A stretch of 57,951 bases of DNA from Planctomycetota bacterium (GTDB taxonomy: Bacteria > Planctomycetota > UBA8108 > UBA1146), in contig DUAN01000228.1 in the NCBI GenBank assembly GCA_012960845.1, positions 1 to 57,951 of the forward strand, given 5' to 3'. The translations under genes and the position numbers were made by a program. Every line of letters begins with the position of its first letter. Position 1 is the stretch's first letter. Below, one piece after another: positions 37,830 to 53,213 of this stretch. The notes under the pieces were generated by a model, which was not told the origin of the DNA, ran no database searches, and saw nothing but the letters and a program-made list of their open reading frames with translations.

Positions 37830-38981
37830 CTAAGGGGTCACGGCATCGTCGCAGCGGCCCAGGGTCGAGGCACGCAGGTGCAACCAGTCCCAGAATCCCG
37901 CCCTGAGGGCCAGAGCCTTTCGCATCCCCTTGACCAGATCCACCCGCCCCGATGGGGTTGCAGCATAGTGCCGTGAGATCTCGAGCAAGGTTTCTTGATG
38001 GTGATCATCGACGGCAGCGTGGAGGGGGAAGAAAACCGTCTCTTTCGGATCAACTCCGAGCACCGTGATCGCCGGCAAGAAGTGCTGGTACATGGTGCTC
38101 ACCACATTTTCGGTTCCCAGACCCAGAGCCCCGATCGCTTCCGCAGGGGATCCTCCCGAAAGAACCGAAAGGAACATCTCACGCCAGCAGACCACCTCCA
38201 CCGAGTCCGACTCCGGATTCAAGTTTTTGACTCCTGTTGCTTCACAGAATCTACGAAAGAGGATCGGATGCGGAATCCCATCCACCCACTCCTGCTCCAC
38301 ACCGATGCCTGCCAGTTCCTCCAGTTCATCGGACTCGTAAATGCCTGCCTCTTCGGTGAGATTTTCCATCAGAGCCGTTCGATGCTCGGGTCTCTCCAGG
38401 CGCCCGATGACAGTGGTCAAAAACCGCGGAAAATGTGACGAGTAACCGTGATAATGGCAGGCGAAATCCGCCAGTGCCCAGTTCATGTCTGGAAGAGAAT
38501 GATTCCTCAATGCCAGCAGGTAGGGATGGTTCACCGCACGATGCGCGATGGCCTCTTCTGTCACCCTTTGAAGAAAGAACTCGATATCTTGATCCTCTGA
38601 ACTCGCTGCGGAGCTCAGATGCGCCTGACGTCGAGCATCGAGGATCCGGACAAAATACAGCAGCTCCTCTGGGTCTTTGGCCAGATCTCTCAACAGGTCT
38701 TCTCGTTCCATCTTCCGCAACACGCTGGAGATCCCTGCGCGGACAGTGGCGCTCCTCGGGCGGCGATCGATGAATGCCATCTCGCCGACCAGATCTCCCG
38801 CCTCGATGGTGTCGATCACCGCGCCGCCACGCAGCACCTCGACTTGGCCACTCTCGATCAGGTAGATACTCTCCTCGAAATCGCCCTCGCGGATGATTTC
38901 GGTTCCTTCTTCAATTTCGATCCGATCTCCTGAATCGCTCAATCGATCGAGCAGATCCTGGGGTAGAACAGGCTGATTCAC
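37830..38981 (-). CDS. cNMP-binding domain fused to a heme-oxygenase-like diiron oxidase (TenA/PqqC/CADD superfamily)
   Basis: N-terminal GEMAFIDRRPRSATV; C-terminal NLTEE..H, GTE and FFPLHAAVDDHH ligand pattern. Alternative start TTG 38996. Confidence 0.8.
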   Translation of the reverse strand: MNQPVLPQDLLDRLSDSGDRIEIEEGTEIIREGDFEESIYLIESGQVEVLRGGAVIDTIEAGDLVGEMAFIDRRPRSATVRAGISSVLRKMEREDLLRDLAKDPEELLYFVRILDARRQAHLSSAASSEDQDIEFFLQRVTEEAIAHRAVNHPYLLALRNHSLPDMNWALADFACHYHGYSSHFPRFLTTVIGRLERPEHRTALMENLTEEAGIYESDELEELAGIGVEQEWVDGIPHPILFRRFCEATGVKNLNPESDSVEVVCWREMFLSVLSGGSPAEAIGALGLGTENVVSTMYQHFLPAITVLGVDPKETVFFPLHAAVDDHHQETLLEISRHYAATPSGRVDLVKGMRKALALRAGFWDWLHLRASTLGRCDDAVTP

Positions 38982-39181
38982 GATGTCTCCATTCAAAGTG
39001 CTCCGCTCAGCGGGTCACCAAAGGTGTCTATTCTTGAAGTGGATCATTTCTGAAGAAGTTCCACAAGCCATCCGGGGGTCGAGAGCACACAACTCCATCG
39101 CACGCCTGTATCCGGAATCGCAACGCACTCGGACAGATTTTCACAGGAGACTGCATTGGATCAATGATCCCCTACTGGCCT

Positions 39182-41888: not shown

Positions 41889-43730
41889 TCAGGCCTGAAC
41901 CGTCGACAGCGCCTCGGCGATGGCGGTCACGATCTGCGAGTTCTGCTGCGGTGATTTGACCGCAGTCCTCAGCGCATGGGTTCCCAGTGCACTTCCCATG
42001 TTGCTGGCATCCCTCAGATGAACTCCCGATCGGCGACAATGTTGGATGACCTGAGCGGCGGTCGGGCCATCGGCGGGAAGAAAAGTCAAAAGAAAGTTGG
42101 CCACCGATGGAATCACCTCGAGCCCCAGTTGTTGAAGGTCTCTGGCCAGCGACTCGCGAGCCAACGCAGTCGCCTGATATTGGGTCTGGTAGTACTCGGG
42201 ATCCTCGAGTGCCTTCACCGCTGCCACCTGACCCGGCAGACTGACCGCCCACGGTGGAGTCAACGCTCGCAACGGTTCGAGGATCTCTGGAGACGCACAA
42301 AGATATGCCGAACGCACCCCCGACAGTGCATAGCCCTTCGACATCGACTTGCAAACCACGACATTTTTTCGCTGACAGCCAAACTGTTCCAGTGAATGGG
42401 CGCTACCGACGTACTCGATGTAGGTTTCATCGATCCAGAAGCGAGTGGATGATGGGGTAGCCTCGATGATCGACTGCAACTCGCTCATCGGAAGGTGACA
42501 GCCGGTGGGACTGTTGGGATTGACCACCACTACCAGGTCGTAGTCGCCCGTTGCAAGTTGCCCTTGCAACCGTTCGCCAGCGACTTTGAAGCCATCTTCG
42601 CGGCGCAGTTGAAAACGATCGACCTGACAACGCAGAACCTGTTCGCAGACATGAAAGTACTCGCCATAGGATGGATCGAGTAGCAGCACCCGGCTCGATG
42701 ACGAGAGCCACCGATTGAATGCGAGGAAGATCAGATCGGATGATCCGGCCCCCGGCAAGATAGACGATCCCGGCACACCCCTCGCCGCAGCGATCGCTGC
42801 GATCAGGCCCTCGCAACCGGTCGGAGGCGATGTTCGCACCAGCCAGTCGAGGTGCTCGGAGAGGGTCGAAATCACCCCGGGAGCGGCGGGGAACCATGCG
42901 TCCAGAACATCGGCATTGATGATCTCCTGCCGTCGCGAAAGGGTCTGAAAGCCATCGCCCACATCAACGAAGAAACCTCCGCCATGAAAGCAAGCCGATG
43001 GTTTTCTCAGCGGAAAGGGCAGTTGCCACTCCACCCTCTGTTCAATCCGAGCGACCAGTTGAGGTCGCTTCTCGACCTGCTCGCGAATTTGATCGACGGA
43101 GGCGCTCATCAACCGAAAGGTCACGGCACCCCTGACCAGTTCGATTCCATGATCCTGATATCCGCTGCTGCGGTAGATGGAGGCCACCTCGGTGCGACCG
43201 ATGACGACCAATCGAGTTCCTCCGCTCGCCTCCACGGCTCGAAACGAGGCATACATCAGCGCTGGCGCCAGAAGCGATCCCCGCCGTCCAGAGTTGACCG
43301 TCAACAGCCGAACCTCGAATAACCGATCGCGATCCTCGAAGGGCCACTGTTTTCGATCGAGGTAACTATCGAGGGAGTACTCGCCTCCCTCCGGAGGGGT
43401 GATGCTGATGAAGCCAGCCATCTGCCCATCGATGATCGCGACGAAGTAGCGATTGAACTGATCCAGATGATTTTTCAGTATTCCATCGGGGTTCTGCGGG
43501 TGCTGACCCAGTTCGACCGCATAGACATCATGCCTGGTGCGATAGATCTCCTGACGATCCTGCTCTGTCGCCTCTCGGATCACCATCGCGGCGGCAGATG
43601 GCTCGCCTCCTCCAGCCAGTCCACCGTGCTGGATCACCTTCTCGGTGCTGATTGATTCGATCAAGGTCGCCACTCTTTCACCGTGCTGAGTTGAAGCCAG
43701 ATTTTCCTGTAGGCTGTTCGCCACGCACAC
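41889..43730 (-). CDS. Fusion of an N-acyltransferase (GNAT/FeeM-like) and a HisC/CobD-like PLP enzyme
   Basis: N-terminal IYRTRHDVYAVELG and FEVRLLTV; C-terminal FHGG, VNPNSPTG, IDETY and KSMSKGYALSGVR. The true start may be 43673 or 43586. Confidence 0.8.
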   Translation of the reverse strand: MCVANSLQENLASTQHGERVATLIESISTEKVIQHGGLAGGGEPSAAAMVIREATEQDRQEIYRTRHDVYAVELGQHPQNPDGILKNHLDQFNRYFVAIIDGQMAGFISITPPEGGEYSLDSYLDRKQWPFEDRDRLFEVRLLTVNSGRRGSLLAPALMYASFRAVEASGGTRLVVIGRTEVASIYRSSGYQDHGIELVRGAVTFRLMSASVDQIREQVEKRPQLVARIEQRVEWQLPFPLRKPSACFHGGGFFVDVGDGFQTLSRRQEIINADVLDAWFPAAPGVISTLSEHLDWLVRTSPPTGCEGLIAAIAAARGVPGSSILPGAGSSDLIFLAFNRWLSSSSRVLLLDPSYGEYFHVCEQVLRCQVDRFQLRREDGFKVAGERLQGQLATGDYDLVVVVNPNSPTGCHLPMSELQSIIEATPSSTRFWIDETYIEYVGSAHSLEQFGCQRKNVVVCKSMSKGYALSGVRSAYLCASPEILEPLRALTPPWAVSLPGQVAAVKALEDPEYYQTQYQATALARESLARDLQQLGLEVIPSVANFLLTFLPADGPTAAQVIQHCRRSGVHLRDASNMGSALGTHALRTAVKSPQQNSQIVTAIAEALSTVQA

Positions 43731-45011: not shown

Positions 45012-47912
45012 CTATGTGGTCTGCCGTGCGACCAGCCCGGCAAAAGTGCCTTCTGCTGCGACCAGCTCGCTGTAAGTCCCCTGCTCGACTACACGGCCTC
45101 GATCGAGCACGTAGATGCAATCGGCAGCACGAATCGAACTGAGTCGATGGGCGATCACGATGCGCGTGACACGCCTTCGATTGAGGCTGTCGTTGACAAT
45201 CTTCTGGGCCTTGTTATCGAGGGCACTGGTAGCCTCGTCGAGGAACAGGATCTTGGGCCTTCGGATCAGCGCGCGGCAGATGAGGATGCGCTGTCGCTGG
45301 CCACCTGAAAGATTACTACCCCCCTCGCTGATCACCGTATGCATCTGCATCGGCATCTCGCGGATGTCATCTGAGATTCCCGCCTCTTCAGCCGCCTCCC
45401 ACGCCTGCTCCATCGAATAGACCGAGCCCACCGTGATGTTCTCGAAGATCGAGCCAGCACCGAGATGCCCCGATTGGAGCACCACTCCCAGTTGCCTGCG
45501 GACGGCGGTGGCATCGATCGAATCGACATCCTGACCATCGAAGCGAACCTCACCGCTTTCGGGACTCTCGAATCCGAGCATCAGCCGCAACAAAGTCGAC
45601 TTTCCGCACCCCGAGGTTCCGGTCAAGGCGATCATCTCACCTGGCCTGGCATGAATCGTCACATCTTCCAGCACCTTGGGACCCTCTGGTGAATAGCGGA
45701 AGTGGATCCGTGAGAGTTCGACCTCTCCCTTCAACTTCCCTGGATCGACGCTGGCGGTAACCGTTTCCATCTCTGCGGTCATCAGAGGCTTCATCCGTTC
45801 AGCGAGTACCGTGGTATCGAGGAAACCCACGACGGTTGCACTCAAGGTCAGTGCACCGGCGAGGAAGATCCCGAGGGCGGTATTGAACGCGAGGAACACA
45901 CCGATGGTCATCGGTGACTGACCCGGATCTTGCCCGGTGACCAGCGGAATCGCCAACATGAACAGGATCAATGTACTCAGTGTCGGGATCGCCATGTTGA
46001 AGAGTCCAAGGCCATCGACGATCCTCTGGACGCTGTTGGAGAGGCTCAACTGCTTCGCGACCCGCTCCATCCACAGGGCAAATGCCCGCCGTTCTGCACC
46101 GGCAACACGCAGTTTGCTCACGGCACTGATGAGTTGGACTTCGAAACCGAGCAGTTCACCTTCCTGCTCCATCAACTTCTTCGCATATCTGCGAATCAGT
46201 ACCCCCCCGATCATGGTGACGACTGCCACCAGAGTGGCGATGACGATGGCCACGAATGCCAGGGTCGAGTTGTAGTAGAAGAGCAGTACCACGTTGAGCA
46301 GTGCCATGAACGATGTCATCAGGGTCAACAAGGTCGAACCGCTGAACTCCTGGCTGATGGCGTGAGCGGCGGAGACACGTTGCAACAGGTCCCCGGTGGA
46401 GTACTTGGAGAAGAAGGACACCTTGAGTCGCAACAATCGATCCCAGATGGCGGATTGAGCATCGAAGTCGGTGATCACCGACAATCGGATGCTGACGAAG
46501 GCCTGGAACACCCTCAGCAGGGTCATCCCGATCGTAACGCCAATCAGCGCTGCGCCCAGTTCCATCAACAGTCTCGGGTTCGAGTCGGGGATCGCGGTAT
46601 CGAGCATGATGGCCATCGCCTGCGGAATCAGCATCCCCATCACCGTGAGAAGCATCGCAGCGAAGAAGAACGAGGTCACATCGGCGAACTTGTTATGAAG
46701 ACAGAACTTCACCAGGCCGAAGGGACTCTTCTCATTTTCGTCGAGGGATCGGATCAACACCAGGGCATCCTTCTCGAGTAACCGAGAGGTGGATTCGGTC
46801 ACGATCGTTCGCGAGTCATCCCGTGGATCGTAGATCAGGTAGTGCCCCCTGCGATCCTGCAAGATCGCTACCGGCCTGCCATCCTGCTCGAGATATGCGA
46901 CCAGTGGGCCGACGTCACGAGTCCACCACTTTCCGCGGAAGACGACGCGCCTCTGCTGAATCCTCGAAGCTCTGGTGATCGCCTCGGCTGGATCGCTCAG
47001 CGACTCCATATCGGTGGAATCGGCGATGGGCAAGATCTCGATCCCCTTCTCGGCTCCGACCAGTTTCATGACGGAAAAGAGATCTTCTCCACGGATCGAC
47101 TGGGTCTCCTGCGGGTTCAACACCGAAGCCAGTTGCGAGAGAGCTTGTTCTGATCTCTTCCCCTCGATGATCTTTCTTCGTTTCACACGCTCGAGGTTAT
47201 GATCCCCTTCACGAGACCTGGATACGGACCTGACCTCCTGGATGCAACGGTGCAGTCGTAGCAACGCAGACGATGCGGTTGAAACGGCAACTTCAGTTCG
47301 ATCGAGTACCTCGAATTCCATCTCCTCGCTCGCTTCGATCCAGCACCCTGCAGGAGCCAGTACCACATCATCTTCGAAGGAGATGTGATGTTTTCCCGCC
47401 AGCAGACCCTTCCCACGAACGACGCGAATCCATCCTTCTCGATCGGCCGGCGGAGCGACCCTGTGCCCGATAGAGATCACACGACTCTCTCCCTCGACCC
47501 ATCTCTCGCAGGAGGAGGGCACCGGCTCGGGATCGAGCAGAGGATAGACCTGCGTTGCCCAGGCCTGGATCACCTCGACCGCAGAGGAACCGAGCGATTG
47601 CGCTGCGAACTCGAGCCGTTCTCTCGGCAACTCGAGAACTCGTAGTGATTCGGTCGAAAGCACCATGGCAGAGTGAGTATCCTCACTCCGTTCTGCAGGA
47701 ATCGAGAAGAGAAAATCACCAGCACTGATGTCCCGGATGAGTCGACGACGTCCGGTGGCATGAGAACCCACCACGTCGGTGGCCACCAGTTCTCCCTGCC
47801 CATCGATGACGACCCAGACCAGATCGGGATCGTTGAGCAGCAGCGATAGATGCCCCGAGACGAGGCGAACCGTTCCATTCTGCTCGAGGAGTTGCGGTTC
47901 AATATTCATCAT
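45012..47912 (-). CDS. NHLM-type bacteriocin-system ABC transporter, ATP-binding/permease subunit without active peptidase
   Basis: N-terminal cNMP-like barrel, WW..D.GP, KLRVAGAERRAFALW, Walker A GTSGCGKST, LSGGQRQR and DEATSALD. ATGA overlap with the upstream ABC gene. Confidence 0.92.
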   Translation of the reverse strand: MMNIEPQLLEQNGTVRLVSGHLSLLLNDPDLVWVVIDGQGELVATDVVGSHATGRRRLIRDISAGDFLFSIPAERSEDTHSAMVLSTESLRVLELPRERLEFAAQSLGSSAVEVIQAWATQVYPLLDPEPVPSSCERWVEGESRVISIGHRVAPPADREGWIRVVRGKGLLAGKHHISFEDDVVLAPAGCWIEASEEMEFEVLDRTEVAVSTASSALLRLHRCIQEVRSVSRSREGDHNLERVKRRKIIEGKRSEQALSQLASVLNPQETQSIRGEDLFSVMKLVGAEKGIEILPIADSTDMESLSDPAEAITRASRIQQRRVVFRGKWWTRDVGPLVAYLEQDGRPVAILQDRRGHYLIYDPRDDSRTIVTESTSRLLEKDALVLIRSLDENEKSPFGLVKFCLHNKFADVTSFFFAAMLLTVMGMLIPQAMAIMLDTAIPDSNPRLLMELGAALIGVTIGMTLLRVFQAFVSIRLSVITDFDAQSAIWDRLLRLKVSFFSKYSTGDLLQRVSAAHAISQEFSGSTLLTLMTSFMALLNVVLLFYYNSTLAFVAIVIATLVAVVTMIGGVLIRRYAKKLMEQEGELLGFEVQLISAVSKLRVAGAERRAFALWMERVAKQLSLSNSVQRIVDGLGLFNMAIPTLSTLILFMLAIPLVTGQDPGQSPMTIGVFLAFNTALGIFLAGALTLSATVVGFLDTTVLAERMKPLMTAEMETVTASVDPGKLKGEVELSRIHFRYSPEGPKVLEDVTIHARPGEMIALTGTSGCGKSTLLRLMLGFESPESGEVRFDGQDVDSIDATAVRRQLGVVLQSGHLGAGSIFENITVGSVYSMEQAWEAAEEAGISDDIREMPMQMHTVISEGGSNLSGGQRQRILICRALIRRPKILFLDEATSALDNKAQKIVNDSLNRRRVTRIVIAHRLSSIRAADCIYVLDRGRVVEQGTYSELVAAEGTFAGLVARQTT

Positions 47913-50098
47913 GCGCTGGTCTCCTTGAACTCATCGTCCAGTTTCAGGAGATTTGCGTAAGCACCTGCTGCGCTCCACAGTTGATCGTGGTTTCCACGCT
48001 CAACGACTTTTCCGTGTTCCAGAACGATGATCTCGGTGCAATCCCGGATGGTGCTCAATCGATGAGAGACGAAGATGGAGGAGCAGCCTCGCATCCTCAT
48101 CCGATCGAGTACCACTCTTTCCGTCTCGGTATCGAGAGCACTCGTCGCCTCGTCGAGGATCAGGATGGTCGGGTTGGGCACCAGGGTCCTGGCGATTTCC
48201 AGTCGCTGTCGTTGCCCTCCGCTGAGGTTATTGCCGCCTTCGATCAACTCCGCATCGAAGCCGCCGGGGAGGGCGGTGATGGTCTCGAGGATCGCAGCAT
48301 CTTCACATGCCTGGTGCAGGTCTGAGTCAGGCACCGTGGAATCCCACAGGGTGAGGTTGTCTCGAACGGTACCGCTGAAGAGGAGGATCTCCTGGCTGAT
48401 GAAGGAGAAGGAATTGACGAACTGATTCCTCGGTAACTCGGAGAGTGGAACCCCATCGAAATAGATCTCGCCGCTCCACGGAACCAGTTCTCCAGAGATC
48501 AACTTGGCCAGCGTCGATTTGCCGGAGCCACTTCCACCGACCAGCGCCACTCGGTCCCCCGGTTTGATGTGCATGTTCATATCCTCCAGCATCGGAGGCT
48601 CCAGCGGATTGTAACCAAAGGAAACATTCTCCAGCCGGATGTCTCCCGACAGGAACACCTTCTCGCCCTCCTGCTCATCCGAGTCGGCCATCTCGAGGGC
48701 CGCTCTCTCGAAGGGGTACTTCAGCACATCGTCGATGCGGTCGAGATCGCCCCTCATCTCCTGGGATACCGTGCCGAGGTCGAGCAGGTTTTCGACCGGC
48801 CCGAGAAAACTACCCATCAAGGACTGGAAGGCGACCAGCATACCGATGGTCATGAAGCCATCGATGACACGGAATCCCCCGACGATGATCACCAGTACCG
48901 TTGCCAGTGCGCTGAGCAAGGTGGGCATCGTCGACAACAGCACATTGGAGACCTGCAGATTTTGCTGGGCGTTGATCGCCTTGGAGTAGTAGCCGGACCA
49001 CTTCTCGTAGAAGCCAGATTCCAGACCACTCGCCTTGATCGTCTCCATCCCCTTGAGCCCGGCCATCGCCGTTCCCTCGGCCTTTCCGAACTCCTGGAGC
49101 ACACGCATCGAAGCCTCGATGCGGCTGGCAGAGATCCAGCGCAACAAGGTGAAGTTCAGAAGTGCCACGCACAGCCCCACGCAGGTCAGTAACACGTCGT
49201 AGTAAAGCATCACCGTCAGATAGAGACCGGCCATCACCACATCGATGGCAGTCTGTGCCAATCGCCCCGAGATGTCGCTGGCGAGTTCTTCATTCAATCG
49301 GCTTCGACTGGCGACCTCTCCGGCAAATCTCTGGACATAGAACTCGTTAGGGAGTTGCAAGAGATGCCAGAGGAACTGACTCGACAACTTGATCGTCAGG
49401 TTCAATCGAAGTCGGCGAAGTGAATTCATCTGCAAGTACCTGAGTGCCAGTCCCAGAAGGATGGCGGAGAACATCCCCAGCATGACGGGGCGAGCCCAGT
49501 CCACTCTCCCCTGCAGGATGATCTCATCGAGGAAAACCTGCAGCAGTACCGGGAACAGGATCCCCGGAATCACCATCAAGAAGCCCACGAAGATGCAGAA
49601 CACAACGGGAAGAGCGGACCCGGCGAGCCGTTCCGCCACAGCCCCGATCAAACTCGGCCTCTTGCCGCCCTTCTCGAACTGCTCCCCTGGCTGCATCGCC
49701 AGCGCGACTCCGGTGAAACTACGTTCGAAGTCGCTGATCGAGATGATCCTGTGTCCCATCGCAGGGTCGTTGATGTACACCCTGTCCTTCTTGAAACCTT
49801 CCAGCACGACAAAATGGTTGAACTCCCAGAAGAGAATGCAGGGCATCTGCAGATTTCGCAGGGCATCGACGCTGGCCTTGATCCCGTTGGCTTCGAGTCC
49901 ATATCGTCGTGCGGCACGCAGGATATTGGCAGCCTTGCTGCCATCACGAGAGACTCCGCAATTCTGACGCAACTTGGCGAGCGGTTCGATCCTGCCGTGA
50001 TATCCGAGGATCATCGCAAGAGATGCAGCACCACATTCCACGGCCTCCAGTTGGAGGACGGTCGGCGTCTTCACCCTTTTTCCTGGACCGATGGCCAT
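47909..50098 (-). CDS. NHLM-type C39 peptidase-containing ABC transporter (PCAT)
   Basis: TPTVLQLEAVECGAASL (catalytic Cys), WEFNHFVV (His), INDPA (Asp), GGSGSGKST and LSGGQRQR. Confidence 0.95.
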   Translation of the reverse strand: MAIGPGKRVKTPTVLQLEAVECGAASLAMILGYHGRIEPLAKLRQNCGVSRDGSKAANILRAARRYGLEANGIKASVDALRNLQMPCILFWEFNHFVVLEGFKKDRVYINDPAMGHRIISISDFERSFTGVALAMQPGEQFEKGGKRPSLIGAVAERLAGSALPVVFCIFVGFLMVIPGILFPVLLQVFLDEIILQGRVDWARPVMLGMFSAILLGLALRYLQMNSLRRLRLNLTIKLSSQFLWHLLQLPNEFYVQRFAGEVASRSRLNEELASDISGRLAQTAIDVVMAGLYLTVMLYYDVLLTCVGLCVALLNFTLLRWISASRIEASMRVLQEFGKAEGTAMAGLKGMETIKASGLESGFYEKWSGYYSKAINAQQNLQVSNVLLSTMPTLLSALATVLVIIVGGFRVIDGFMTIGMLVAFQSLMGSFLGPVENLLDLGTVSQEMRGDLDRIDDVLKYPFERAALEMADSDEQEGEKVFLSGDIRLENVSFGYNPLEPPMLEDMNMHIKPGDRVALVGGSGSGKSTLAKLISGELVPWSGEIYFDGVPLSELPRNQFVNSFSFISQEILLFSGTVRDNLTLWDSTVPDSDLHQACEDAAILETITALPGGFDAELIEGGNNLSGGQRQRLEIARTLVPNPTILILDEATSALDTETERVVLDRMRMRGCSSIFVSHRLSTIRDCTEIIVLEHGKVVERGNHDQLWSAAGAYANLLKLDDEFKETSA

Positions 50099-50103
50099 GT
50101 TTT

Positions 50104-51546
50104 CTAGTTACCGCCCATTTCCCTGAGAAATGGCAACAAGAAGGTGATCGGTTGCCGGTTCTCGATGGTCGCATCTACTGTCACCGTCATGCCCGAGGTG
50201 ATTGCGATGTCCGGACCCTTTCCCGAAGACCACTGGTACCCACTGTGCGCCTCATCATCCGTACGCAACCGGCTACGAACCTCGATCATCGATCCTCCGG
50301 TCCCCAGGCTCATCGCCAGTTCCCGATTGCCCACGATGGCGGCGATCGAATCGGTCGAACGAGGTACCGACGATACGCTGGTGATATCACCAAGGATGCT
50401 ACCGAAGCGTTCGCGTTTGATGGTGGTCGGGGTGATGCGAATCTTCATTCCAGAATGGATCTTCTTGCCATCCTTGACCGGGAAGTACGCCACGGCGATG
50501 AGCCCATCCGCATCTCCGGAACTCTCGATCACTCCGATTCTCAATCCCGGCGTCAGCATCTGTCCGGCAGATACGGTCAACTCGAGGATTTTACCGCTCC
50601 TCGGCGAGGTGATGATCGACTGGTGGTTGAGATTCCTCGTCAACCTCTGCACACGACCTTTCGCTTCGGTCAACTCGAGACGGTTCTTGGTTTCGGCAGT
50701 CAACTCCGCCTGATCCAGCCTGGCCAGCTGGACTGCCAGTTCTTCCAGATTTCTCTGCAGCTCCTCGACGGCGTCGAGGCGCACCTGATGTTCTGTCAGG
50801 AACTTCAACCTCTGGAACTCGACTTCCTGCTGTTTCAGCTGGAGTTCAGAGATGGCCACCTTGTTATTGAGGAGTTCCTGTCGAGTGTCGGTGAGTTCCT
50901 GATCGTAGGCAGCGAAGATCTTTTCCTCGGTCAGTCCCTCGAAATCGGTCAACTTCTTGCTGAGAAACTGACCGAGAATTTCGAGGTCCGCCTGGACCAC
51001 CGTCAGTTGCTGCGACTGGCCCGCCAGGTATCGATCACTCTCAGCGTGGCGAGCGTTGGCCAGCGAGGTACTCGACTCGATTTGTTTCTGATACCAGTTC
51101 CGCTTCGCCTCGATGAACTGCTTCTCGGTGGCGAGAGTGAACTTACGAAGCGGCTCGATGATGGCGATCTTGGTTTCCAGCTCCTCGAGGAGTTGCTGCT
51201 CCACGGCGAGTTGCTCGACCAGTTCCGGCTGGTATACCTCGCCGAGAAGTTGCCCCTTGGTGACCTCGTCGCCCACCTCGACATCGAGTTGCAGCAGTTG
51301 TCCCTGGGAGTGACTCTGGAGCGGCACGATCCGTCCGGGAAAGACCATGATCCCGTTGGCGTTGAGATTGACCGGAATCTGGCCGAAGACACACCAGAAT
51401 CCGAAGCCAAGGAACCCGAGCCCCAGTACCAGCAAAGGCAGCCAGTTCCTCCGGGGAAGAACCTGCAACATCGTATCCAGCTGCTCCGGCGTCGAGATGT
51501 GTTCGAGTGCCTTTTTTCGAAACAGTGACGGCTTTTCAGCGGACAA
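50104..51546 (-). CDS. NHLM-type HlyD membrane-fusion secretion protein
   Basis: LFRKKALE..STPEQLD, one TM helix, long coiled coil, YQWSSGKGP and PITFLLP. Confidence 0.93.
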   Translation of the reverse strand: MSAEKPSLFRKKALEHISTPEQLDTMLQVLPRRNWLPLLVLGLGFLGFGFWCVFGQIPVNLNANGIMVFPGRIVPLQSHSQGQLLQLDVEVGDEVTKGQLLGEVYQPELVEQLAVEQQLLEELETKIAIIEPLRKFTLATEKQFIEAKRNWYQKQIESSTSLANARHAESDRYLAGQSQQLTVVQADLEILGQFLSKKLTDFEGLTEEKIFAAYDQELTDTRQELLNNKVAISELQLKQQEVEFQRLKFLTEHQVRLDAVEELQRNLEELAVQLARLDQAELTAETKNRLELTEAKGRVQRLTRNLNHQSIITSPRSGKILELTVSAGQMLTPGLRIGVIESSGDADGLIAVAYFPVKDGKKIHSGMKIRITPTTIKRERFGSILGDITSVSSVPRSTDSIAAIVGNRELAMSLGTGGSMIEVRSRLRTDDEAHSGYQWSSGKGPDIAITSGMTVTVDATIENRQPITFLLPFLREMGGN

Positions 51547-51582
51547 GACGACCTCCTCGTCAAATTTCCTGGAAACGGTTGC

Positions 51583-52146
51583 TCAGTTCCGGGTCGCTCG
51601 CTCGAGCAAGTATTCGAAACGTCGGCTCGCCAGCGAAAGCGCCTCGAGAATCTCCGGATCCACCACCGAACTGCCCTCCACCTCACCCGGGTTGGCCGAA
51701 CCGACCTTGCCAACGGTGCTGACGGTCAGGGTAGTGTGAGTGAGATGGATCAATCGTTGCGCCAGGACGACTCCGAGGGCCCGGTAAAAGCGACTGGCGA
51801 AGCCGGTATCATTGCTGAGTTTTGTCTTCAGGTCCGATCGTGAAATCTGCAGTACCGTGGTCGATTCCGCAGCGATGAGGGTGACTGCTGGAGGCCTCGA
51901 ATCGAGCAGTGAGACTTCACCGACGATTTCGCCAGGGTAGACGGTAGCCAGAACCTTGCTGGTATCGTGGACGGTGGTCACCGTCAGTGCGCCATCGAGT
52001 ACAAACCCGATGAACTCGATATGGACACCCTCTTCGATGAGGATGTCGCCTTCCTGAAGCACGGTCGTCTGCCCGACCCGCACGAACCACTCGATATCTT
52101 GATCCTCGAGGACTCCAAGGATGATGAGGGAATTTCTCAACCACAC
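51583..52146 (-). CDS. Cyclic-nucleotide-binding-domain protein associated with bacteriocin-type transport
   Basis: Motifs ILGVLEDQDIEW, GEIVGEVSLLDSRPP and FASRFYRAL. Start may be TTG 52140. Confidence 0.85.
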   Translation of the reverse strand: MWLRNSLIILGVLEDQDIEWFVRVGQTTVLQEGDILIEEGVHIEFIGFVLDGALTVTTVHDTSKVLATVYPGEIVGEVSLLDSRPPAVTLIAAESTTVLQISRSDLKTKLSNDTGFASRFYRALGVVLAQRLIHLTHTTLTVSTVGKVGSANPGEVEGSSVVDPEILEALSLASRRFEYLLERATRN

Positions 52147-52224
52147 ACCTCACTACTGCAGCGAGTTTGCACCGTGACCAATTGACCAGAAATCAGCAAA
52201 GAATGCTCCCGATATAATAAAACC

Positions 52225-52257
52225 GACCGTTTCCGCTCCGAGGGAGCAGAAACGGTC
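52225..52257 (-). terminator. Hairpin terminator/attenuator between the precursor and transporter genes
   Basis: GACCGTTTC/GAAACGGTC plus GCTCC/GGAGC stems, followed on the minus strand by GGTTTTATTAT. Confidence 0.65.
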
Positions 52258-52333
52258 AGTCGATCCGCACCAAGGTCCACACAGCAGAACTGAAGAACCC
52301 ATCATGCTCGATCCGGGCAAGTCACAGGAACTA

Positions 52334-52543
52334 CTATTTACCGCCGGTGAATTTGCCCTTTTGCCCCTTGTTTGCGTCCATGCCCTTAATTTCTGTGTCA
52401 GTCGGGCCCTTGGCATCACCACCGGACATACCATCGGCCTTACCCACTGGTTTTTTCCCTGGAGTTTTCTTCGAATCTCCGGCTCCTCCGGCGATACCTT
52501 CCAGGTCCGCGTCTGCGACTTCTTCGGGTTCCCAGTTGCTCAT
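52334..52543 (-). CDS. Double-glycine leader precursor peptide (69 aa)
   Basis: MSNWEPEEVADADLEGIAGG matches the ELxxxxLxxIxGG leader pattern. Purine-rich RBS, tandem TAG TAG stops, first gene of the PCAT cluster. Confidence 0.85.
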   Translation of the reverse strand: MSNWEPEEVADADLEGIAGGAGDSKKTPGKKPVGKADGMSGGDAKGPTDTEIKGMDANKGQKGKFTGGK

Positions 52544-52718
52544 GATTACTTCTCTCTTGGAAATCGATGTTTTGAATCGTGACCCCAAAAGTGGGTCTAA
52601 TGTTCTTTGGGTGAGTGATTTCCGGCGGCTCACCCTTGAACCGTCAACGTCGTCGAGAACGATCCTTCCAATTTCTTCGAAATGATATGGCGGGCACTTC
52701 GTAAAAATCCACCTGGGA

Positions 52719-52752
52719 CACGAACCACGGCACGAACCACGGTACGAACCAC
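52719..52752. repeat. 12-bp tandem repeat x3 (YACGAACCACGG) upstream of the precursor gene
   Basis: Read directly from the sequence. Confidence 0.85.
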
Positions 52753-53213
52753 ACGCAAAAAGAAATCGATCAAACCAGTCGACATTCGCAGTTTAAATCA
52801 GATCGATAGCACCCGCCATGACCGACTCACCAACCTCATCCGCCCGCTATAACTCCTTATGATACAATATATTATGATTACTCTCGACTGACGCCGCGGC
52901 GTCACCTTCCGATATTAAGACAGCCAAGTCGAGAATTGTCCAGGTGCGTCGAGGATCCAGACGATCGTTGCATCTGAACACCCAAAGAAATGAACCGCAC
53001 CAGGGCTACGGAAGAGGATGGCTACCGAGGAGGAGGATCGATCCAGCGGGAGCCGAGCCACTCGGTCGTACCTCCGCTGCAACTCGTTCGGTTCCAGCGA
53101 ACTCCTTCGATCATCGCAGCCAGCAAGGGCACGCCCTTCCACCATCGATCCCCATCGAAGTTCAGCAGATGACCGTGATCATGATCGGAAGAATCCCATG
53201 GTATCGTACCCCC

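Follow-up and report, generated by a model that had tools for sequence, protein, structure and literature searches.

The NHLM family of peptide transporters was defined by Haft et al. in 2010 through precursors of peptides that are made by the ribosome and modified after translation (RiPPs; PMC2887384). For cyanobacterial groups IV and V, which carry an extra ATP-binding cassette (ABC) protein, Wang et al. (2011) listed 15/61 and 16/37 precursors (31/98 together) as ‘other’, neither nitrile hydratase leader peptides (NHLPs) nor Nif11-derived peptides (N11Ps; PMC3140520, Table 2). The determinants recognized by the C39 peptidase of peptidase-containing ABC transporters (PCATs) lie within approximately the last 13 leader residues, which are all that the LahT150 C39 domain needs; ComA follows the rule Leu(−12)-X3-Glu(−8)-Leu(−7), the LahT150 groove takes Val-4/Leu-7/Leu-12, and a C39 domain of the NHLP/Nif11 type cleaves short leaders (PMC6363468). 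PCATs of diderm bacteria are mostly orphans whose natural cargo is rarely known; a current example is HetC, in which ppGpp binds in vitro to an N-terminal cyclic nucleotide monophosphate (cNMP)-binding-type domain that is also required in vivo (PMC10986499). We analysed an export locus in a 57,951-nt contig (DUAN01000228.1; C228, hereafter the window) of a marine Planctomycetota bacterium, whose metagenome-assembled genome (MAG; G000) comprises 3.33 Mb on 243 contigs and is 90.81% complete. The locus spans positions 45012–52543, entirely on the minus strand, and consists of a small precursor gene, an RNA hairpin and genes for a cNMP-domain protein, an HlyD-family adaptor, a C39-bearing ABC protein (ABC1) and a second ABC protein (ABC2).

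The transport operon is a known kind of export system, and as a secretion system it is nothing new; novelty lies in the cargo, a conserved, previously unannotated peptide family of Planctomycetota. On balance, we think it probable that the locus encodes a single PCAT/type-I exporter, gated by a nucleotide, and that cationic peptides encoded at several loci, probably unmodified, are cleaved and secreted by it. An earlier reading of the window from its letters alone (the sequence-only reading) had named the same six elements, running in one direction, and each is present at the coordinates it gave; what it proposed as a new system is better described as a known exporter with a new, unannotated cargo family. 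For comparative analyses, we used a set of 41 genomes (the source genome and 40 relatives), and the DNA upstream of the transporter locus was examined in ten relatives.

Transport operon

The three transport proteins each score above the cut-off of the corresponding NHLM-type model. The HlyD-family membrane-fusion (periplasmic adaptor) protein (480 aa; 50104–51546, minus strand) matches TIGR03794 with 301.9 bits (cut-off 156.2), ABC1 (729 aa; 47909–50098, minus strand) matches TIGR03796 with 1028.6 bits (cut-off 853.3) over model positions 1–710 of 710, and ABC2, a permease/ATPase without a C39 domain (966 aa; 45012–47912, minus strand), matches TIGR03797 with 826.1 bits (cut-off 709.4) over residues 276–964. 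Pfam domains of ABC1 are Peptidase_C39 (129.6 bits), ABC_membrane and ABC_tran, and the protein aligns over its full length with PCAT1 (4ry2; E = 9.5e-101) and ComA (E = 3e-81). Residues Gln16, Cys22, His95 and Asp111 of ABC1 are in register with PCAT1 and invariant in 10/10 orthologues; in this family, they form the C39 catalytic set together with the oxyanion glutamine. As read from the sequences, the ATPase domains of both ABC1 and ABC2 have their Walker A, signature, Walker B-Glu and H-loop motifs in canonical form. The start of ABC2 overlaps the stop of ABC1 by 4 nt, which makes a pairing of the two proteins probable. Four OEP/TolC-like proteins, any of which might supply the outer part of the conduit, are encoded elsewhere in the source genome. 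The claim of a complete NHLM-type export system with an intact C39 Cys/His/Asp set thus stands for the catalytic residues and, in the inner-membrane sense, for completeness.

A conserved and previously unannotated precursor family

The precursor gene (P0001; 52334–52543, minus strand; ATG at 52543, stop at 52334) encodes 69 aa, MSNWEPEEVADADLEGIAGGAGDSKKTPGKKPVGKADGMSGGDAKGPTDTEIKGMDANKGQKGKFTGGK, which divide into a 20-aa acidic double-glycine leader and a 49-aa hydrophilic core rich in Lys and Gly. Gly-Gly forms residues 19–20, with the predicted cut after Gly20, and an AG-rich stretch (‘AGAGAGAAG’) ends 6 nt 5′ of the ATG. The core contains 11 Lys, 5 Asp and 1 Glu (net charge +5). Neither NCBIfam nor Pfam holds a model that matched the precursor at E ≤ 0.01, and the peptide is therefore neither an NHLP nor a Nif11 precursor; the sequence-only reading, which had called it a non-NHLP, cationic peptide, was right on both counts. 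A look-up in the ESM Atlas gave a best score of 0.85, under the usable level.

Genes of the same family (family 1) lie directly upstream of the cNMP–HlyD–ABC1–ABC2 genes in 7/10 relatives examined. The contigs of the remaining three end before the upstream position, so that 7/7 of those that reach it carry a peptide gene, in numbers of one (G017, G023, G005 and G007), two (G011), three (G018) or four (G024). All of these peptides have a short acidic leader ending in D-A/S-D-L/M-E-G/D-I/V-A-G-G. Given this conserved-leader orthologue upstream of the same operon in seven relatives, the 69-aa open reading frame (ORF) is more than a chance frame. A search of 5.8 billion proteins with a profile built from 14 family-1 peptides recovered 48 clusters, all unnamed or ‘hypothetical’ and without a Pfam domain; those with a taxon label belong to Planctomycetota. 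Full-text searches, which did not extend to subscription journals or supplements, returned no publication that deals with double-glycine peptides of planctomycetes or with this precursor family.

Statistics over 59 distinct family-1 sequences show that composition alone is conserved in the cores, with sequence and length drifting freely. The cores are 32–80 aa long (median 44 aa) and composed of 21.8% Lys, 18.4% Gly, 10.0% Asp and 9.6% Pro (60% together), with Cys in 1/59. Their net charge is positive in 57/59 (median +5), the leaders (median 20 aa) having a net charge of −5. They are hydrophilic, with a median grand average of hydropathy (GRAVY) of −1.45 and hydrophobic runs that, at their longest, reach a median of 3 residues. 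Cores end in Lys in 42/59 and contain an [FLMY]PG motif in 24/59. No bacteriocin model of Pfam or NCBIfam matched the family-1 core, which lacks the amphipathic or hydrophobic, membrane-active character of class II bacteriocins, and no recognizable candidate for an immunity gene was seen within the operon.

Between the precursor and the transporter genes lies a hairpin resembling an intrinsic terminator with a U-rich tail (52211–52261, minus strand), formed by a perfect 19-bp stem with a 3-nt loop (stem–loop 52261–52221). Folding of the intergenic RNA gave −79.8 kcal/mol (z = −4.58), a stability that 0/200 shuffled sequences reached. In 8/8 intergenic regions (the window and seven relatives), a similar hairpin of −27 to −37 kcal/mol, followed by a U-rich tail, lies between the last precursor gene and the cNMP gene; its sequence differs between genera. 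Parts of the region 51500–52800 were present in 17 RNA libraries, all labelled as marine, seawater or hydrothermal-vent metagenomes. RNA-library contigs covered the precursor in 4/4 libraries inspected (from four studies), and three of them run from the precursor across the hairpin into the cNMP gene (X1, 51917–52528; X2, 51899–52740; X7, 51426–52768); the X6 assembly breaks at the hairpin. In X6, the depth was 994 for the 287-nt contig with the precursor and 16 for the 7.5-kb contig with the transporter genes, a difference that suggests an excess of precursor mRNA but that we do not count as evidence, any more than stretches of the window that lack RNA cover in single runs; because contig depths cannot rank genes and DNA may be present, the RNA data speak to presence and read-through. 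Conservation of the hairpin in 8/8 operons, together with the read-through contigs, fits a leaky terminator or attenuator, which would set the ratio of precursor to pump. Because the precursor is present in marine metatranscriptome assemblies of several studies, production of the peptides in the sea is probable.

The precursor messenger RNA has a transcribed 5′ leader region (52544–52768, minus strand), as seen in contigs X2 (to 52740) and X7 (to 52768). Within the genus, the upstream region 52544–52800 is conserved, with a mean column identity of 82% in three genomes. It also holds, on the minus strand, a tandem repeat of GGTTCGT(G/A)CCGT-like units. A scan of positions 52100–53000 against Rfam gave nothing above gathering scores. 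Further upstream, a promoter-like site (TCGAGA, a 17-nt spacer and TATCAT; 52859–52887, minus strand) is a weak match to the consensus and, with 1 found and 2.7 expected from shuffled sequences, no more than chance would give. The contig ends at 52740 and 52768 (from two studies) carry adapter letters, which hints, if weakly, that a 5′ end lies downstream of the promoter-like match.

Leaders fit the C39 recognition rule

The window leader has Val at −12, Asp at −8, Leu at −7 and Ile at −4, followed by Gly-Gly, and so fits the published C39 rule. Across both peptide families (the second is described below), position −12 is hydrophobic in 58/59 family-1 and 137/137 family-2 peptides, and position −8 is acidic in 55/59 and 130/137, respectively; the search pattern for the cleavage site itself prescribed positions −7 and −4, which are not independent evidence. 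Because the LahT150 C39 domain needs only approximately the last 13 leader residues, a leader of 20 aa is ordinary for a PCAT. The weight that the sequence-only reading had placed on the shortness of this leader was therefore too great (PMC6363468 gives approximately 13 residues as sufficient for the LahT150 C39 domain), as was its premise that the transporter trio normally accompanies long NHLP or Nif11 leaders, given the 15/61 and 16/37 ‘other’ precursors tabulated for cyanobacterial groups IV and V (PMC3140520). Structure prediction for a complex of the C39 domain and the precursor, based on their alignments, scored 0.15 against a mark of 0.32 and counts neither way.

A second peptide family and a leader cassette

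When the source genome was scanned for the leader motif in all six frames (stop to stop, any length), the scan recovered eight further short ORFs with double-glycine leaders on four other contigs, and the conserved leader motif occurred on short ORFs only. The adjacent peptide is thus not the sole candidate substrate, a point absent from the sequence-only reading. These ORFs (family 2) lie on contigs C37 (L004; 448–615 and 731–907, plus strand), C50 (L005; 6188–6027, 5939–5763 and 5653–5471, minus strand), C152 (L006; 541–401 and 328–122, minus strand) and C230 (L007; 7181–7038, minus strand). Their leaders are longer than those of family 1 and end in K-L/V/I-S-D-E-E-L-K/E-D-V-A-G-G, and a GAAAGG motif resembling a ribosome-binding site stands 6–8 nt before the ATG in 7/7 readable starts (the eighth, on C50, is masked by N). 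Both ORFs of C37, a 1.3-kb contig, resemble two on C50 (92% DNA identity in one pair and 75% core identity in the other), so they may be strain variants, which would leave six distinct peptides. The family is larger than family 1 and comprises at least 239 clusters in the protein database, all hypothetical and from Planctomycetota; matches to double-glycine bacteriocin models were sub-threshold and ran through the leaders alone.

Similarity between paralogues at the DNA level spans approximately −13 to +80 of the ATG and ends at the Gly-Gly codons, beyond which the cores are unrelated, indicating a leader cassette joined to unrelated cores. Some core subfamilies recur across genomes: one has the motif Y/F-N-S/T-S-K-S-N-T-S, one starts like a Flp pilin and one carries a MopE-type Cys motif (26.7 bits; cut-off 27). 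The Flp-type subfamily begins with the first approximately 12 residues of mature Flp pilin and continues into a Lys-rich tail (L004, 731–904; L049, 6875–7048; L057, 4951–5115). The predicted C39 cut site coincides with the usual prepilin cut site. A metagenomic database protein (P0068) has a complete Flp pilin behind a family-2 leader (Flp_Fap, 57.4 bits; cut-off 32.2); the source genome has no Flp_Fap match above cut-off, and tblastn of the family-2 cores against that genome found no donor genes. Two further candidate sources of core sequence were rejected: copying of the Hcp N terminus had no support, and copying of the HU N terminus yielded a single sub-threshold match to Bac_DNA_binding (E = 0.05; 14.3 bits, cut-off 22.4). 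The leader cassette is also duplicated within ORFs: the C230 peptide repeats part of its leader, and a 70-aa protein (P0049) has two full leaders, each ending in Gly-Gly.

Peptides track the transporter across genomes

TIGR03796 was matched above cut-off in 15/41 genomes and, with fragments at contig ends in G003 and G008, the transporter is present in 17. Family-1 profile matches occurred in 15/17 transporter genomes and 0/24 genomes without a transporter, and family-2 matches in 15/17 and 1/24 (G014, with one match at E = 6.8e-4), respectively; because relatives share descent, these counts overstate the number of events. In the two transporter genomes without matches (G009 and G021), the locus is cut by the contig end directly upstream. 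The split into presence and absence also runs within two genera: three genomes of genus g5 have the transporter and the peptides and three have neither, and three genomes of genus g7 have the transporter, two of them with family 2, the marginal match of G014 being the only other one. The number of profile matches per genome ranged from three to fifteen.

The source genome has a single C39-ABC protein for nine ORFs with double-glycine leaders. Its only other C39 domain (36.9 bits) forms the C terminus of a 364-aa predicted membrane protein without an ABC part (contig C221; L009, 1495–2589, minus strand). The scattered double-glycine peptides probably use the same pump.

Modifying enzymes

We found no known RiPP maturase among the genes checked beside the operon, in agreement with the sequence-only reading. 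These genes encode a homocysteine S-methyltransferase, a FeeM-like/aminotransferase fusion, AIM24 and a cNMP/haem-oxygenase-like fusion on the downstream side and PSCyt/PSD1 and DUF1501 proteins on the other. In the 90.81%-complete source genome, neither the NHLP (TIGR03793) nor the Nif11 (TIGR03798) leader model was matched at E ≤ 1, and searches for YcaO, LanC-like and SPASM genes, each of which produced matches in control genomes, returned none; the model for MvdD-type ATP-grasp enzymes (PF21068) matched neither the source genome nor any control genome and so says nothing. The canonical NHLP precursors and maturases elsewhere in the genome that the sequence-only reading had raised as the possible true partners of the pump were thus not encountered. 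Among the enzyme classes searched, no enzyme gene was conserved next to the operon across genera, that is, the linked modifying enzyme by which a RiPP cluster is recognized was not found. Methyltransferase genes do adjoin some family-2 ORFs. An Mtf2/phthiotriol-methyltransferase-like S-adenosylmethionine (SAM)-dependent O-methyltransferase (NF045825, 160.7 bits; cut-off 400) directly follows a family-2 peptide pair at three loci in three genomes (L005, 4556–5374, minus strand; L049, 7148–7966, plus strand; L062, 6541–7407, plus strand), the first peptide of each pair having the Y/F-N-S/T-S-K-S-N-T-S motif, and is absent at the equivalent locus of G007 (L051). A second, unrelated methyltransferase adjoins the peptide pair on C152. 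Of the two options left by the sequence-only reading, unmodified export gains from the failure to find a canonical maturase, and distant tailoring is kept in play by these methyltransferases.

It is conceivable, if unlikely, that non-canonical or distant enzymes modify the Lys/Asp/Thr/Pro-rich cores before PCAT cleavage and export, the candidates being the SAM methyltransferases beside some family-2 genes or the cNMP/haem-oxygenase-like oxidase encoded 6 kb downstream (cNMP_binding and Haem_oxygenas_2; 37830–38996). The recurrence of the Mtf2-like enzyme and the presence of the C152 methyltransferase favour such tailoring, and the core motif conserved in several genomes would suit a recognition or modification site; the family-1 [FLMY]PG motif and C-terminal Lys are further points in favour, and the NHLM family was itself defined via RiPP precursors (PMC2887384). 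However, the Mtf2-like enzyme is missing at the equivalent G007 locus, no enzyme gene is conserved beyond the genus beside the transporter-adjacent peptide, YcaO, LanC-like and SPASM genes were not found in the source genome, and family-1 cores, which keep composition alone over lengths of 32–80 aa, would be unusual substrates for enzymes that act at fixed sites.

The downstream neighbour genes (homocysteine S-methyltransferase, FeeM-like/aminotransferase, AIM24 and cNMP/haem-oxygenase-like) are syntenic in genus g1 only, and the upstream neighbours vary between genera. With synteny this narrow, we set the downstream genes aside as tailoring candidates and leave them out of the system. One of them (41889–43730, minus strand) encodes 613 aa with a weak match to FeeM-like N-acyl amino acid synthases (20.2 bits; cut-off 27) and a class I/II aminotransferase domain; in G023, an aminotransferase part 50% identical to this protein sits upstream of the precursor (L031, 984–2054). 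Another (37830–38996, minus strand) encodes the fusion protein of 388 aa, in which a cNMP-binding domain is joined to an iron-containing redox domain of the haem-oxygenase-like type (PF14518).

cNMP-type modules

The operon contains two cNMP-type modules. The first is a stand-alone 187-aa protein with a single cNMP-binding domain (51583–52146, minus strand; PF00027, 56.2 bits), conserved in 8/8 operons aligned. It matches TIGR03896 (‘bacteriocin-type transport-associated protein’) at positions 139–316 of 317 only (108.1 bits, E = 5.5e-31); having half the length and a score under the curated cut-off (161.05), it falls outside that family. The second is predicted in the N-terminal region of ABC2, in which residues 1–275 had no Pfam match. 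An AlphaFold model of residues 1–400, built on 11 orthologues (predicted local distance difference test score (pLDDT) 83.2), comprises, within its N-terminal approximately 205 aa, two β-barrels (approximately residues 14–96 and 143–203), then a long helix (210–265) and a small α/β domain (276–390), followed by the membrane domain; the ATPase domain lies further along the protein. Foldseek ranked tandem cyclic-nucleotide-binding (CNB) domains from the regulatory subunits of PKA and PKG highest among PDB entries (E of approximately 4e-8, probability 1.00), and hhalign of the barrel core against the stand-alone cNMP protein gave a probability of 43% (E = 2.4e-4). BLASTP between the cNMP protein and the ABC2 N terminus gave no useful signal, profile and fold comparison alone giving one. 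On the basis of the model and these comparisons, we read the ABC2 N terminus, with moderate confidence, as a degenerate cNMP-like sensor module. Assignment of residues 276–390 to a degenerate C39-like domain had no support (no BLASTP match; hhalign probability 0.5%) and was dropped.

Sensor modules of this kind would also suit peptides that act as pheromone-like or developmental signals rather than as weapons or materials, released according to physiological state through nucleotide sensing as proposed for HetC in Nostoc, a reading that we judge quite improbable. In its favour, the operon has two cNMP-type modules, differentiation depends on the cNMP domain of HetC, to which ppGpp binds in vitro (PMC10986499), double-glycine peptides include competence and quorum signals (PMC6363468), and the cores are without the amphipathic or hydrophobic character of pore-forming bacteriocins. 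Yet no histidine kinase or other receptor gene was seen beside the operon, and long (median 44 aa), fast-evolving cores with 3–15 matches per genome resemble a diversifying set of effectors more than a signal with its receptor.

Proposed mechanism and its standing

Under the reading that we prefer, a single nucleotide-gated exporter with a multi-locus set of probably unmodified cargo, a small gene with strong transcription and a leaky terminator would supply a surplus of precursors with acidic double-glycine leaders. The C39 domain of ABC1 (Cys22/His95/Asp111) would bind the last approximately 13 leader residues (hydrophobic −12, acidic −8, Leu/Met −7, Ile/Val −4 and Gly-Gly) and cut after Gly-Gly. 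The core would then be pushed out via ABC1, probably paired with ABC2, and pass through the HlyD adaptor and a TolC-like channel encoded elsewhere, with export coupled to a nucleotide signal by the stand-alone cNMP protein and the cNMP-like barrels of ABC2. The predicted cargo is the adjacent Lys/Gly/Asp/Pro-rich peptide and the eight ORFs with double-glycine leaders (six distinct), which would yield linear, unmodified, cationic and disordered peptides. The analysis itself shows the gene content, the catalytic residues, the fit of the leaders to the C39 rule, the conservation, the co-occurrence and the presence in RNA libraries. Homology gives good grounds for the predicted cleavage and export; an ABC1/ABC2 heteromer, nucleotide gating, the lack of modification and an extracellular role are inferences.

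Several points weigh against this reading. Related genomes are not independent, and the co-occurrence of peptides and transporter represents a handful of gain and loss events rather than 41 trials. The RNA data are contigs, whose depth cannot rank genes, from libraries that can contain DNA. In their hydropathy (median GRAVY −1.45) and short hydrophobic runs (median 3), the cores are unlike known unmodified double-glycine-leader bacteriocins, so that we can cite no functional precedent for peptides of this kind being active in unmodified form. A SAM methyltransferase stands beside one family-2 subfamily at three loci. The search for maturases took in four families (YcaO, LanC-like, SPASM and MvdD-type ATP-grasp), and maturase or NHLP genes could lie in the missing part of a 243-contig MAG that is 90.8% complete. 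Foldseek template modelling scores (TM-scores) for the ABC2 barrels are low (0.15–0.31), and bicupins match too.

That the pump instead serves other cargo, such as a protein of larger size or an NHLP/Nif11 peptide encoded in the 9% of the genome that is unassembled, and that the double-glycine-like ORFs are uninvolved, deserves very little credence: the genome is incomplete (90.81%), but a peptide gene lies upstream of the operon in all seven relatives whose contigs reach that far, family 1 co-occurs with the transporter (15/17 against 0/24), the leader fits the C39 rule, no NHLP/Nif11 leader was found in the source genome and the all-frame scan at any length placed the conserved leader on short ORFs only.

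Building on the preferred reading of one gated exporter with many unmodified peptides, we propose a more far-reaching picture as a speculation that we hold to be rather doubtful. This small-genome marine Planctomycetota clade may possess a ‘leader-cassette secretome’, in which one nucleotide-gated PCAT exports fast-turnover, unmodified, polycationic and disordered peptides, and new cargo would arise by recombination of an approximately 80-nt ribosome-site-plus-leader module onto unrelated coding sequence. The complete Flp pilin in one relative, the truncated Flp N termini and the MopE-type Cys motifs would be examples of such recombination. The products would act extracellularly in ways unlike classical bacteriocins, for example, by binding polyanionic polymers or surfaces.

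Comparison with known systems

The locus gives a clear transporter–cargo pairing in an uncultured marine planctomycete lineage, with a multi-locus repertoire that tracks the transporter across genomes and two separate cNMP-type modules, and it opens questions about the nucleotide gating of a two-subunit PCAT, the minimal leader for an ‘NHLM’ pump and the role of hydrophilic polycationic peptides in planktonic bacteria. It resembles the NHLM/NHLP cluster (PMC2887384) in passing the three equivalog cut-offs, in gene order and in having an adjoining precursor with a double-glycine leader. It differs in that neither an NHLP/Nif11 precursor nor thiazole/oxazole or lanthionine machinery was found and in that the 20-aa leader is unlike nitrile hydratase or Nif11; the co-occurrence with NHLP/Nif11 precursors that defines NHLM was not seen in the source genome (90.81% complete). 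With cyanobacterial groups IV and V, the locus shares HlyD, a C39-ABC protein, a peptidase-less ABC protein and several precursors per transporter. According to PMC3140520, cores of the cyanobacterial peptides abound in Gly, Cys, Ser and Thr, and most NHLP/N11P precursors carry a negative charge, whereas the planctomycete cores are rich in Lys, Gly, Asp and Pro, contain Cys in 1/59 and carry a net charge of approximately +5, a comparison with the main-text description that leaves room for similar peptides among the cyanobacterial ‘others’.

PCAT1 of Clostridium thermocellum, ComA and LahT are matched by the full-length alignment of ABC1 with PCAT1 and ComA, by the catalytic residues and by the −12/−8/−7/−4/Gly-Gly leader rule. 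Unlike these single-gene homodimers of Gram-positive bacteria, the planctomycete system has a second, peptidase-less ABC protein with cNMP-like barrels and an HlyD protein for a diderm envelope. HetC of Nostoc PCC 7120 likewise combines a cNMP-type sensor module with a double-glycine peptide exporter; there, the C39-bearing subunit itself carries the cNMP domain, and genes for a substrate or an adaptor are absent from the vicinity (PMC10986499), whereas in the planctomycete locus the modules reside on a separate 187-aa protein and, putatively, on the peptidase-less ABC2, and candidate substrates can be identified. The two-cNMP-domain protein of TIGR03896 is represented by a protein that matches its second half in the same genomic context, at half the length and with one PF00027 domain. 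Prochlorosin-type systems also combine a conserved leader with hypervariable cores and have precursors scattered away from a single exporter (described in part in PMC3140520 and PMC6363468); here, no LanM-type enzyme was found, the cores are essentially free of Cys, and the leaders are short and not of the Nif11 type.

Compared with these systems, the planctomycete locus is set apart by a search that found neither an NHLP/Nif11 precursor nor a canonical maturase, by a cargo unlike known bacteriocins and RiPP cores (rich in Lys, Gly, Asp and Pro, nearly free of Cys and predicted to be disordered), by cNMP-type modules split over a separate protein and, probably, ABC2, and by a repertoire of peptides built on a leader cassette.

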